The notes under the pieces: model-generated
Databases searched by the model: none
What the model was told of the DNA's origin: nothing
Seen by the model: only the letters and a program-made list of their open reading frames with translations
Translations under genes and position numbers: made by a program
From: a virus
Lineage: Duplodnaviria; Heunggongvirae; Uroviricota; Caudoviricetes
IMG/VR virus record: IMGVR_UViG_2541047682_000003
Direction: 5' to 3' (one strand)
Length of the DNA stretch: 24,435 nt
Shown: positions 10,069-11,493 of the stretch, piece by piece
How the letters are laid out: the number at the start of each line of letters is the position of its first letter
How positions within the stretch are numbered: position 1 is the first letter of the stretch

Positions 10069-10722
10069 TCACCCAAACGTCTCTTCAGGCCATTGGCTGG
10101 CGATAACTTTCCCCACAACGGAACAACTCTCATTGCATGGGATCATTGGGTATTGTGGGTTTAGTGGCTGTAGAAACACCTGACCGCTATCCCTGATCAG
10201 TTTCTTGAAGGTAAATTCATCACCACCAAGTCTGGCTATGCAGAAATCGCCGGGCTCAACAGCTTGCTCAGGGTCAACCAGAATTAACATCCCGTCAGGA
10301 AAGCTGGGTTTGGAACCTGTTGGTGCGGTCATTGAGTTACCTTCAACCTCAAGCCAGAATGCAGAGTCACTGGCTTTTTTGGTTGTGCTTACCAATCTCT
10401 CCGCATCGCCTTTGGTAAAGGTTCTGAGTTCTGGAGAGAACATCCCAGCCTGAACATGAGAAAAAACAGGGTACTCATATTGTTTTTTAACTGGGGCCGA
10501 TGAGTATTCGCCAACAGGTGAAAATGTCCCGTCGTGGTTGAATGATATGTTATCAATACCAAGGTATTTAAACACCACACCAATATCACTAAGAGATGGA
10601 TGACGAGATCCGCGCAACCAGTGTCCAATCCCACCCTGCGTCATACCTAGCTCTTCGGCTAACTTCTCTTGAGTTATGCCGAGCTCTTTCATTCTGGATC
10701 TAGCCAGTTCATACCATTTCAT
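10069..10722 (-). CDS. cI: CI-type prophage repressor (HTH N-domain + LexA/S24-like C-domain)
   Basis: C-terminal ~135 aa match lambda cI as recalled ([28 protein letters not shown]...[14 protein letters not shown]) and the N-terminal HTH ([20 protein letters not shown]) differs. Start chosen at ATG 10722 (AGGA 7 nt upstream); alternatives are ATG 10728, ATG 10764 (possible leaderless) or TTG 10770. Confidence 0.93.
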
Positions 10723-10728
10723 TTTCAT

Positions 10729-10839
10729 GTCCTTATTATTACGCTCTGTACTGGAACCATCCATGCACAATGTGTATTTTTACTTGTATTCGCAAAGTAC
10801 ATATTGTATTTTTTTATTCGTGTTTACTATGGAGGGCAT
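10729..10839. promoter_or_regulatory. OR region: divergent pRM/pR promoters and operators
   Basis: 110-bp AT-rich gap between divergent cI and cro. Operator-like AAAGTACATATTGTATT (10795-10810) closely matches the OL palindrome; related ACAATGTGTATTT at about 10768-10781. Promoter hexamers not assigned with confidence. Confidence 0.55.
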
Positions 10840-11055
10840 ATGAGCAACCTACGAAAATATCGAGAGTCACTGAATATCTCTCAAACAACACTTGCTAAGG
10901 CAGTTGGATGCACACAGGGAGCTATCGGACATTGGGAATCTGGTCGTCGCTTCCCAGACCTTAAAACATGCCGTGCTCTTGTTGCGTGCCTAAACAAGTT
11001 AGGCGCAAAAGTCAGTCTTGATGACGTGTTCCCGCCGGAACACAAAGCCGCTTAA
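10840..11055 (+). CDS. cro: Cro-like repressor (HTH)
   Basis: 71-aa ORF from ATG 10840 with RBS GGAGGG; HTH ISQTTLAKAVGCTQGAIGHWESG; divergent from cI. Not lambda Cro in sequence. Confidence 0.85.
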   Translation: MSNLRKYRESLNISQTTLAKAVGCTQGAIGHWESGRRFPDLKTCRALVACLNKLGAKVSLDDVFPPEHKAA

Positions 11056-11065
11056 TAAGCGGATC

Positions 11066-11111
11066 CGCTCTTTGTAACAACGGACATTCGTCCTACGTCG
11101 CTGAAAAGCGA
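11066..11111 (+). promoter_or_regulatory. Putative nutR (boxA + boxB)
   Basis: boxA-like CGCTCTTT (11066-11073), then AACAACG, small hairpin GGAC-ATTC-GTCC, TACG, and boxB-like hairpin TCGCT-GAAA-AGCGA (11098-11111). Mirrors the candidate nutL. Confidence 0.55.
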
Positions 11112-11196
11112 GTTCCAAGATATCTGACCAACTAAGGCCATATGCGTTTCCACGCATACCTTTCAACTAACTATTCACTATTGGAAATCTTAAGAA

Positions 11197-11493
11197 ATGG
11201 AAAGAACAAGTTACAGCAAACTATCACAGCGTGACGTTGATCGCGCAGAAACAGATTTACTTATCAATCTGTCAGCTATTACCCAGCGCGGTCTGGCAAA
11301 GATGATTGGCTGTCATGAATCGAAGATAAGCAGAACGGACTGGAGATTTATTGCTTCGGTCTTGTGTGCTTTCGGAATGGCATCAGACATCAGTCCGATT
11401 AGCAGGGCTTTTAAGTATGCGCTTGATGGACTCACCAATAAAAAACGCCCGGCGGCAACCGAGCGTTCTGAACAAATCCAGATGGAATTCTGA
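11197..11493 (+). CDS. cII: CII transcriptional activator
   Basis: 98-aa ORF whose C-terminus matches lambda CII as recalled (LTNKKRPAATERSEQIQMEF) while the N-terminal DNA-binding part differs. Confidence 0.85.
   Translation: MERTSYSKLSQRDVDRAETDLLINLSAITQRGLAKMIGCHESKISRTDWRFIASVLCAFGMASDISPISRAFKYALDGLTNKKRPAATERSEQIQMEF

Follow-up and report, generated by a model that had tools for sequence, protein, structure and literature searches.

Several lambdoid phages carry an immunity region closely related to the one described here. In VT2-Sakai (Sp5), the Stx1-converting phage of accession AP005153, Stx2 II, 1717, YYZ-2008 and 2851, the corresponding DNA is 96.7% identical to positions 10071-11533 of the window, that is, the entire 24,435-nt stretch of viral DNA analysed (all coordinates refer to it). 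The genes of this type have been named cI2c/cro4 (Smith 2012; PMC3430580) and, in a 2022 survey of Stx phages, CI clade I, and it has already been published that the C-terminus of lambda CI is common to the cI2c variants (Smith 2012; PMC3430580). The VT2-Sakai-type set of immunity modules is annotated, published and very common in E. coli, and is not a new recombinant; as a textbook example of module exchange among lambdoid phages it matters little as a discovery. With a probability of about 0.9, the region in the window is a complete lambda-style lysis/lysogeny switch of this known VT2-Sakai/Stx1-converting-phage immunity type, carried in a lambda-like backbone.

The distribution of the region is wide. 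A 3.2-kb segment (8400-11600) occurs without any difference (100% identity) in phages ev207, ev017, PhiR57_1 and PhiR63_2, positions 10069-11493 recur at 100% identity in E. coli Nissle 1917, ATCC 11775, NU14 and others, and at least 80% of the latter stretch is found in 631 of 5426 complete genomes. When the window is aligned to lambda by blastn, positions 10068-10479 correspond to lambda 37226-37637 (93.4%) and positions 11431-13840 to lambda 38591-41000 (97.4%), with no DNA alignment to lambda for 10480-11430 or for OL. The mosaic structure relative to lambda that the earlier note had described is borne out, as the cI tail (135 of 136 residues) and the last 20 residues of cII (20/20) are lambda-identical, the cI N-domain, Cro and cII residues 1-78 are non-lambda in both protein and DNA comparisons, and the two identity breaks fall within the coding sequences of cI and cII. 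Its suggestion of a new recombinant immunity did not survive, the repressor having full-length 100% matches to known proteins (Stx1-converting phage BAC77937, Stx2 II and others). A full-length match to a known, unrecombined repressor had been named there as the contrary outcome; the match to a known repressor exists, but that repressor is itself a mosaic. The region is not of the lambda immunity type, given a cI head with 15 of 95 residues identical, a Cro that finds no BLASTP match in lambda Cro, and an operator core of TAC-N4-TGTA. Since the parts that recognise DNA (cI N-domain, Cro and operators) are non-lambda, heteroimmunity to lambda, as proposed earlier, is very likely.

The cI gene is on the minus strand, and its product shows 151 of 212 identities to lambda CI overall (BLASTP). 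The lambda-type block (10068-10479) extends from the stop codon to the codon for Tyr96 (lambda Tyr101), and comprises the hinge with the cleavage site and the C-terminal S24 domain. Within residues 96-231 (YEYPVFSH to the C-terminus) the sole change is from lambda W129 to L. The tail is recognised by Pfam as Peptidase_S24 (E = 1.3e-28) and matches the structures PDB 3BDN (2e-96) and 2HO0 (cI 101-229). The lambda-identical stretch includes VQA-GMF, the serine of GNSM and the lysine of FKKL, so that in the annotated numbering the cleavage and catalytic residues are Ala106-Gly107, Ser144 and Lys187. The N-terminal HTH domain (10480-10764, with the annotated start at 10764) is non-lambda and resembles those of phage L and epsilon34. 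It belongs to Pfam HTH_3 (E = 2.1e-10, residues 25-72), and is 16-28% identical to the lambda CI head, 55% to that of L/ST64T c2 and 51% to that of epsilon34. The head is 100% identical in the Stx1-converting phage, Stx2 II, 1717, YYZ-2008 and 2851, at least 19 phage records contain an N-domain with 100% identity, and the complete protein is identical (231/231) to that of AP005153. The two parts meet within the hinge; the junction is at Tyr101 of lambda CI, and the Ala-Gly cleavage site follows ten residues further on.

The real start of cI is probably at 10728 (ATG at 10726-10728) and not at the annotated position, which falls within OR2. An ATG-AAA at 7-8 nt from OR3 is kept in all three phages compared (window, ST64T and epsilon34). 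The start of PRM is predicted at ~10728, so the cI mRNA would be leaderless, most likely beginning at this ATG. As annotated, cI probably has 12 codons too many at its start and spans two operators, which is relevant to anyone wishing to express the protein.

The cro gene (10840-11055, plus strand) encodes 71 amino acids and is of the HTH_3 type (Pfam, E = 4.2e-12), placing it in the 434/P22-like class as opposed to the lambda-fold Cro proteins. It is paralogous to the cI N-domain (35% identity, E = 9e-13), identical (71/71) to Cro of AP005153 and of the VT2-Sakai type, and 69% identical to phage L Cro. The recognition helices read TQGAIGHW in Cro and TQGGIGHW in cI. With a recognition helix almost identical to that of the paralogous repressor head, Cro should recognise the operator sites that the repressor uses. 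The immunity type of H-19B was also considered and was rejected, its cI and Cro being 12% and 27% identical to those in the window.

The product of cII (11197-11493, plus strand; 98 aa) is a member of Phage_CII (PF05269, E = 7e-34, residues 1-92 of 98) and of PHROG 191 (CII-like activator, 9e-38). Residues 79-98 are the lambda-identical part; residues 1-78, with 22% identity to lambda cII, represent the HK022/21/Stx-phage allele. This N-terminal part had been viewed as an immunity-specific DNA-binding module. It is instead a widespread allele, 88-97% identical to those of HK022, 21, H-19B and phi24B, and it keeps a TTGC-N6-TTGT site. That site, TTGCTGTAACTTGT (11206-11219, minus strand; +10 to +23 from the cII ATG), has one mismatch and is the probable CII-binding site of pRE, at which this common form of cII should act; lambda carries GCAAACAAACGCAA at the same offset from its cII ATG. 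The TTGC-N6-TTGC pattern with one mismatch is common by chance (23 matches in the window vs 34 expected), so the argument for TTGCTGTAACTTGT is one of position. The "phage repressor pr" of Nissle 1917, which is reported to give K-12 protection from lambda and Stx phages, is this same cII and not a repressor, which changes the reading of that result.

The identity break in cII (11430/11431) is sharp, lambda homology begins at 11431, and the break is at the 3' end of an antisense terminator. The antisense unit concerned (11431-11551, minus strand), which we take from the lambda map to be oop, was outlined by promoter and terminator scans; it has a pO-like promoter (11523-11551) and a terminator hairpin (11442-11469) with a T-run to ~11432. 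A permissive Rfam search of 8200-11700 returned no match, giving no Rfam confirmation of oop, nut sites or other RNA elements. The cII-tail/oop stretch is kept in lambda, DE3, H-19B, HK022 and the Stx1-converting phage. The lambda-like tail coincides with antisense oop and with the point where the replication module begins on the left, and all the lambdoid phages compared have kept this stretch; a protein-domain swap, as the C-terminal part of cII had been interpreted, is not evident. The break in cII represents the left boundary of the module formed by oop and the replication genes, in a conserved stretch used by other lambdoid hybrids as well. From the cII tail rightward (oop, O, P, ren) the sequence is lambda-type, the crossover lying in the short lambdoid-conserved stretch at the oop terminator.

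Three promoters can be assigned to the switch. Putative PL (8476-8504, minus strand) is composed of TTGATC (plus-strand 8499-8504), a 17-nt spacer and TACTAT (plus-strand 8476-8481); it points leftward into gene N, and its hexamers are annotated in AP005153. Putative PRM (10735-10763, minus strand) has TGGATG (plus-strand 10758-10763), a 17-nt spacer and AATAAT (plus-strand 10735-10740), in agreement with the -35 and -10 of AP005153. Putative PR (10785-10812, plus strand), with TTGTAT, a 16-nt spacer and TATTTT, parallels PL in layout and is close to the AP005153 annotation. All three have weak hexamers, with 7-8 of 12 consensus matches (8/12 for PL). A scan with the sigma-70 consensus called none of them, finding only the pO-like site and some intragenic sites; their positions therefore rest on reading of the sequence together with the annotation of AP005153.

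Six 17-bp operators are already annotated in AP005153; four are unchanged in the window and two (OL2 and OL3) have a 1-nt change. On the left side, OL1 (TAGTACGATATGTACTT, 8477-8493), identical to a "putative operator" of AP005153, has perfectly symmetric half-sites (AGTAC/GTACT) and overlaps the -10 of putative PL. It is followed by OL2 (CAATACAATTTGTTGTA, 8502-8518), the weakest of the six, which contains ATTGTATT on the minus strand, and by OL3 (TATAACGCTTTGTATTT, 8535-8551). On the right side, OR3 (TATTACGCTCTGTACTG, 10737-10753) falls within the cI ORF as annotated and overlaps the -10 of putative PRM, OR2 (ATGCACAATGTGTATTT, 10763-10779) adjoins the -35 of the same promoter, its centre being 43 bp from the predicted start, and OR1 (AAGTACATATTGTATTT, 10795-10811) overlaps the spacer and -10 of putative PR. 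The earlier note had located one operator-like motif at both sides. Its OL coordinates (8478-8492) are correct, and its OR site lies at 10794-10810, one base off the stated position; the shared motif stands, as a 16-mer unique to the two sites. In all, two of the six operators and half of a third had been noticed. The operators are spaced by 25-26 bp and 32-33 bp. In lambda, the operator consensus is of the TATCACCGCCAGTGGTA type and the spacing is 23-24 bp; because of this difference, pairwise cooperativity of the lambda kind is not assured. For lambda CI, a KDapp of only 3.7-6.4 uM has been measured on the VT2-Sa operators, compared to 0.21-0.35 uM on the OL1/OR1 of lambda (PMC10742460).

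If these palindromes were chance matches in AT-rich DNA, the true operators would be elsewhere. Consistent with this, TACNNNNNGTA and ACNNNNTGT, short cores of the operators, show no enrichment across the whole window, and ATTGTATT, which occurs only at 8503-8510 (minus strand) and 10803-10810 (plus strand), is not significant by itself, as 33 of 100 shuffles reach two occurrences. A weight matrix with cross-validation, together with a test for clustering, took the place of the core-enrichment test. The 16-mer AAGTACATATYGTAYT, with up to two mismatches allowed, matches the window only at 8478-8493 (minus strand, OL1) and 10795-10810 (plus strand, OR1); the expected count is 0.04, and none of 100 shuffles gave two matches. 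A weight matrix trained on the three OR sites only, and scanned over the 24-kb window, recovers OL: the top two matches outside OR are OL1 (18.2 bits) and OL3 (11.5 bits), with OL2 (8.8 bits) at rank 6. A score of at least 18.2 is reached in 0.6% of shuffled windows (p ~0.006 per 24 kb), and three matches within 75 bp in 1 of 500 shuffles. ST64T/L and epsilon34, although their heads are only 51-55% identical to that of the window, have retained three sites whose core and spacing are the same (26 bp and 32-34 bp, in that order); the OR3 core is kept in ST64T and epsilon34, and the intergenic DNA outside these conserved elements has diverged. The sites also overlap the only plausible promoter hexamers. 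Chance is thus a highly improbable source of the palindromes, and the case for the operators rests on position, clustering and conservation.

The history of the mosaic can likewise be read in other ways. A recent recombination of lambda itself with a heteroimmune phage, by two fresh crossovers in cI and cII, would fit the sharpness of both breaks in the DNA and the high identity to lambda to the right of 11431. The cII break is also absent from the Stx1-converting phage, VT2-Sakai and HK022 (tails 74% identical to the window over 11450-11500), so the cII junction is comparatively recent. For cI, however, such an origin is refuted. The block shared with lambda has 26 synonymous changes and 1 nonsynonymous change (dS 0.37, dN 0.003), while dS is 0.08 in gene O, and the cI junction, rather than a fresh event, is therefore ancient. 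All of the immunity family has it, also those phages whose replication genes are non-lambda, and Stx phages with HK022-type O/P have the same cI at 98-100% across both halves. In addition, the exact arrangement is fixed and widespread, and the substitutions at 11487, 11509 and 11513 match H-19B/HK022 and not lambda, indicating that the donor was a lambda-like relative and not lambda itself. Taken as a whole, the recent origin from lambda is improbable. Vertical divergence of cI from a lambda-like ancestor, with no recombination, would require a fast head under immunity selection and a frozen tail. The dN/dS of ~0.008 does point to extreme purifying selection on the tail, and all the heads are HTH_3; but head and tail differ too abruptly in their identity to lambda (16-28% vs 99%), the break is at a single codon, and left of it the DNA does not align to lambda. 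The L-type head is joined to a lambda-type tail here (99%) and in epsilon34 (80%), and to a 21-type tail in ST64T/L (in ST64T, 71% identical to the cI of phage 21, vs 47% for lambda CI), a combination that a tree without exchange cannot explain. Divergence of this kind is barely credible, and the repressor of this lambda-like prophage, with its non-lambda DNA-binding head and lambda-type tail, is a genuine mosaic.

In the VT2-Sakai-type switch favoured here, the phage-L-like HTH head would read the 17-bp sites, of which OL and OR have three each and whose core is TAC-N4-TGTA. Joined to it in the hinge is the equivalent of lambda residues 101-236, which should provide the Ala-Gly site and the Ser/Lys S24 core as well as the surfaces for dimer and tetramer formation. 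By binding OR1/OR2 and OL1/OL2 the repressor would block PR and PL, and from OR2, centred at ~-43, it probably activates PRM; we infer binding and cooperativity at the six sites from their sequences. As in lambda, prophage induction should follow from RecA-stimulated self-cleavage, judging from the near-identity of the tail to the lambda cleavage unit (the PDB 2HO0 construct). Given that the tail is so close to that of lambda CI, and is 100% identical to those of Stx clade-I repressors, subunits from two heteroimmune prophages could co-assemble. Mixed dimers, with two different heads, might bind neither set of operators well, leading to a mutual weakening of immunity, or to co-induction, among co-resident or superinfecting phages that have this tail in common. 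We offer this tentatively and consider it rather unlikely; its basis is sequence identity together with what the C-terminal domain is known to do in lambda. If true, mixed dimers would be a form of negative cross-talk not foreseen by the concept of immunity groups.

Left of cI, the slot of rexA/rexB holds a cargo of two genes (8723-10029, minus strand), ORF185 (9472-10029) and ORF250 (8723-9475), which overlap by 4 bp. They are not part of the switch but have the same operon position, with lambda-like sequence exactly at both edges. ORF250 has a DUF1828 domain (Pfam), a match to DUF6978 is weak, and PADLOC reports PDC-M24B (4.7e-10) and PDC-M24A (4.8e-4), making this an uncharacterised candidate defence pair; no work bearing on phage defence came up when the literature was searched for DUF1828. 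The lambda-like end of the immunity operon (8598-8719, minus strand) equals lambda 35708-35826 at 90% (blastn) and includes a terminator-like hairpin (8698-8719). Gene N is interrupted by ISEc52, and an IS2 is present to the right of bor. The exact ISEc52/N junction has no contiguous match in complete E. coli genomes, the best records matching in two pieces.

Compared with AP005153-type phages, the window has lambda O and P in place of an HK022/P22-like O and a DnaB-type P, and different cargo between cI and OL; N, apart from its ISEc52, is of the same type. The cII tail of the Stx1-converting phage is HK022-type (12/20 identical), that of the window lambda-type. Phages ev207, ev017, PhiR57_1 and PhiR63_2 and prophage 3 of Nissle 1917 share the rex-slot cassette and the lambda-type O, P and ren; the window differs from them by its ISEc52 inside N and IS2 right of bor, and in Nissle prophage 3 there is a copy of ISEc52 left of sieB. 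Lambda has the same gene order, with three operators on each side, and is alike in the tImm region, oop, O, P and ren; its OL-OR distance is ~2.36 kb, that of the window ~2.26 kb. The PRM geometry proposed here (OR2 centred ~-43, leaderless start) also resembles lambda, but lambda rexAB is replaced by other genes. The head family, the recognition helix TQGAIGHW, the operator core and the OR layout are the same in L/ST64T (c2, cro) and epsilon34 (gp46, gp47), the tail being 21/P22-like in L/ST64T (46% identical to that of the window) and lambda-like in epsilon34. Finally, in the lambda imm21 hybrid DE3 the right crossover also falls within the conserved cII-tail/oop stretch, at a point ~30 bp rightward of the one in the window, and the cII N-part is of the same allele family (88% identical), whereas the repressor, Cro and operators are those of phage 21, unlike the window.

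The window is a lambda-like prophage or phage genome, and its immunity region is a known VT2-Sakai-type module set within the lambda-like backbone. Within 10069–11493 lie a leftward cI (annotated at 231 aa; Pfam HTH_3 and Peptidase_S24) and the rightward genes cro (71 aa; HTH_3) and cII (98 aa; Phage_CII, E = 7e-34); leftward of cI follow a two-gene cassette, a terminator-like hairpin (8698–8719), the OL region (8477–8551) and gene N. The mosaic described in the earlier note is real. Residues 96–231 of CI match lambda CI at 135 of 136 positions, the sole change being lambda W129 to L, and the N-terminal helix-turn-helix domain (the head) matches at 15 of 95. 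BLASTP against lambda Cro gave no match for Cro, and CII is lambda-like in residues 79–98 (20/20 identical) but not in residues 1–78 (22% identical). At the DNA level, lambda aligns with 10068–10479 (93.4%) and again from 11431 rightward (97.4%), with no lambda homology aligned between the two blocks (10480–11430). The identity thus drops off at 10479 and 11431, inside the cI and cII coding sequences as had been proposed; a part of that proposal which falls away is the N-terminal part of cII as a specificity module. It is 88–97% identical in HK022, 21, H-19B, phi24B and many Stx phages with other repressors and, on this comparison, is a common allele, independent of this immunity.

In cI, identity to lambda runs from the stop codon and ends abruptly at codon Tyr96 (lambda Tyr101, mature numbering). 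This junction falls in the hinge between the domains, ten residues ahead of the Ala111-Gly112 cleavage site, so that the shared block corresponds to the self-cleaving, oligomerising unit, which has been crystallised as cI 101–229 (PDB 2HO0, 2HNF). It carries 26 synonymous changes and 1 nonsynonymous change relative to lambda (dS 0.37, dN 0.003), against a dS of 0.08 in gene O. Unequal divergence of the two halves of cI could in principle give such a break, but the combinations of heads and tails show that exchange did take place: an L-type head is joined to a lambda-type tail in the window (99%) and in epsilon34 (80%), and to a 21-type tail in ST64T, where tail identity is 71% with phage 21 cI and 47% with lambda CI. 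Since the Stx1-converting phage and VT2-Sakai, whose replication genes are non-lambda, carry the same cI at 98–100% identity over each of its halves, the hinge exchange is old and characteristic of the whole immunity family.

The operator-like sequence noted earlier does occur at both OL (8478–8492) and OR, where it occupies 10794–10810, one base away from its first placement. The degenerate 16-mer AAGTACATATYGTAYT is found only at these two places, each copy in the same orientation relative to its own promoter, and two matches arose in 0 of 100 shuffles; ATTGTATT likewise recurs only at OL and OR, without being significant when taken alone. Six 17-bp ‘putative operators’ had already been annotated in AP005153, the GenBank record of a Stx1-converting phage, and four of the six are unchanged in the window while two have one base different. 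The six sites, OL1 (8477–8493), OL2 (8502–8518), OL3 (8535–8551), OR3 (10737–10753), OR2 (10763–10779) and OR1 (10795–10811), have the common core TAC-N4-TGTA. To avoid circularity, a symmetric matrix was trained on the three OR sites only and used to scan the rest of the 24-kb window; its top two matches were OL1 (18.2 bits) and OL3 (11.5 bits), with OL2 ranking sixth outside OR. A score of at least 18.2 was reached in 0.6% of shuffled windows, and three matches within 75 bp in 1 of 500 shuffles. Short operator cores were not enriched over the whole window, so what carries the case is the long shared word together with clustering, position and conservation. The Salmonella phages ST64T/L and epsilon34, with repressor heads only 51–55% identical to that of the window, keep three sites that share this core at near-equal spacing (26 bp, then 32–34 bp), and in a three-phage alignment of the intergenic region the invariant columns fall mostly at operator cores plus one ATG-AAA, which gives the operators independent support. 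The cI head is paralogous to Cro (35% identity, E = 9e-13), and the two recognition helices are nearly alike (TQGGIGHW in cI, TQGAIGHW in Cro), in keeping with their being readers of one operator set.

Promoter hexamers agreeing with the AP005153 annotation give a putative PL on the minus strand (TTGATC-17-TACTAT) and PR on the plus strand (TTGTAT-16-TATTTT), with parallel layouts in which O1 spans the spacer and -10. A leftward promoter, PRM (TGGATG-17-AATAAT), would have its -35 adjoining OR2 and its -10 within OR3, and transcription would start at about 10728. A promoter consensus scan called none of PL, PR and PRM, and all three are therefore proposed tentatively. The annotated cI start (10764) falls within OR2, and the first 12 codons cross OR3. 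An ATG at 10726–10728, 8 nt from OR3 and followed by AAA, is kept at the equivalent place in ST64T and epsilon34 (7–8 nt from OR3), and differing annotated amino termini among these cI genes were already remarked on in a 2012 comparison (PMC3430580). On these grounds we think that translation begins at 10728, giving 219 aa from a leaderless PRM transcript, and that the 12-residue N-terminal extension in database records of this repressor is probably spurious. The cI transcript from lambda PRM is leaderless. The next ATG (10720–10722) has an AAGGA motif 6 nt upstream and could serve longer cI transcripts.

Within cII, TTGC-N6-TTGT lies at +10 to +23 from the ATG, where lambda has TTGC-N6-TTGC; the pattern is common by chance and only its position counts as evidence, and on that basis this CII probably has the same DNA target as lambda CII. 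The gene has been studied under another name. Primers for the Nissle 1917 ‘phage repressor pr’ (EcN_1294; Bury et al. 2018, PMC5987069) map to 11394–11452 (qPCR) and 11151–11518 (cloning), the latter covering the cII gene and the oop region without the oop promoter; the Nissle sequence does not differ from the window here, and the gene is annotated there as a CII family regulator. The ‘pr’ gene is this cII. It follows that the reported K-12 protection, with plating of lambda and Stx phages lowered 215- to 243-fold (PMC5987069), is a multicopy cII effect and not repressor immunity; cross-activation of pRE-type promoters is a plausible explanation, the oop sequence possibly contributing.

Two overlapping minus-strand ORFs of 185 and 250 aa (9472–10029, and 8723–9475 with DUF1828) exactly replace rexA/rexB, with lambda-like sequence flanking the pair at the tImm region on one side and the cI stop on the other. 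Both components of PDC-M24, a candidate defence system in PADLOC, are matched by the pair (A 4.8e-4, B 4.7e-10), and both families are listed in PHROGs as function unknown; no literature on DUF1828 in defence was found. Other phages sharing this cI have different cargo in this slot. Gene N is split, by homology to N of the Stx1-converting phage, into 6761–7016 and 8266 to ~8358 by a 1249-bp IS3-family element (7017–8265; RefSeq names matching copies ISEc52), so the prophage is probably N-defective. In Nissle 1917 an ISEc52 copy lies left of sieB instead, and the ISEc52/N junction had no single contiguous match in complete E. coli genomes. Relative to PhiR57_1 there is a second insertion of 1331 bp (19667–20997), just right of bor, which we take to be IS2 from its InsC/InsD-like ORFs. 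The first base of the window is also the start of the deposited PhiR57_1 record, with an integrase gene there at 1–1143, so that the window may derive from a phage or prophage record in that series and not from an arbitrary cut in a chromosome. Between cro and cII, a boxA-like CGCTCTTTGTAACAA (11066–11080) and a boxB-like hairpin TCGCTGAAAAGCGA (11098–11111) had no Rfam match, and 11067–11115 aligns at 78%, in reverse orientation, to the OL-N region of the Stx1-converting phage, as would be expected of a nutR/nutL pair.

In cII, identity to lambda begins sharply at codon 79, and 11431 is, on the minus strand, where the T-run of a strong terminator hairpin ends; the hairpin (11442–11469) is downstream of a promoter-like site (11523–11551, minus strand). 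By position on the lambda map these are presumably oop antisense RNA and pO, although Rfam gave no match for oop. Lambda, DE3 (lambda imm21), H-19B, HK022 and the Stx1-converting phage all conserve the stretch between 11431 and the beginning of O, which contains three distinct switch points: the window passes from HK022/21-type to lambda-type at its left end, DE3 switches ~30 bp further right, and H-19B after the cII stop. Because several hybrids switch within it, the cII break lies in a short conserved linker also used by other lambdoid hybrids, at the left edge of an oop-O-P module and not at a protein-domain boundary; in lambda CII these residues form the flexible, FtsH-sensitive tail. We regard the cII junction as the more recent crossover. 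In the otherwise lambda-type block right of this junction, the three substitutions at 11487, 11509 and 11513 agree with H-19B, HK022 and the Stx1-converting phage and not with lambda, which suggests a finer patchwork, or a lambda-like donor other than lambda itself.

The immunity region is widely shared. The 3.2 kb at 8400–11600 are 100% identical in phages ev207, ev017, PhiR57_1 and PhiR63_2, and identity over 10069–11493 is likewise 100% in E. coli Nissle 1917, ATCC 11775 (the type strain), NU14 and others; of 5426 complete genomes, 631 carry at least 80% of this interval. No report of a cognate repressor binding VT2-Sa-type operators was found in the literature. Smith et al. (2012, PMC3430580) had already described a C-terminus shared between lambda CI and repressors of type cI2c, and a 2022 survey (PMC8951638) assigned these repressors and lambda CI to the same clade, clade I. 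In EMSA, lambda CI bound VT2-Sa operators with a KDapp of 3.7–6.4 uM, compared with 0.21–0.35 uM on its own OL1/OR1 (PMC10742460), and this weak binding is consistent with heteroimmunity to lambda.
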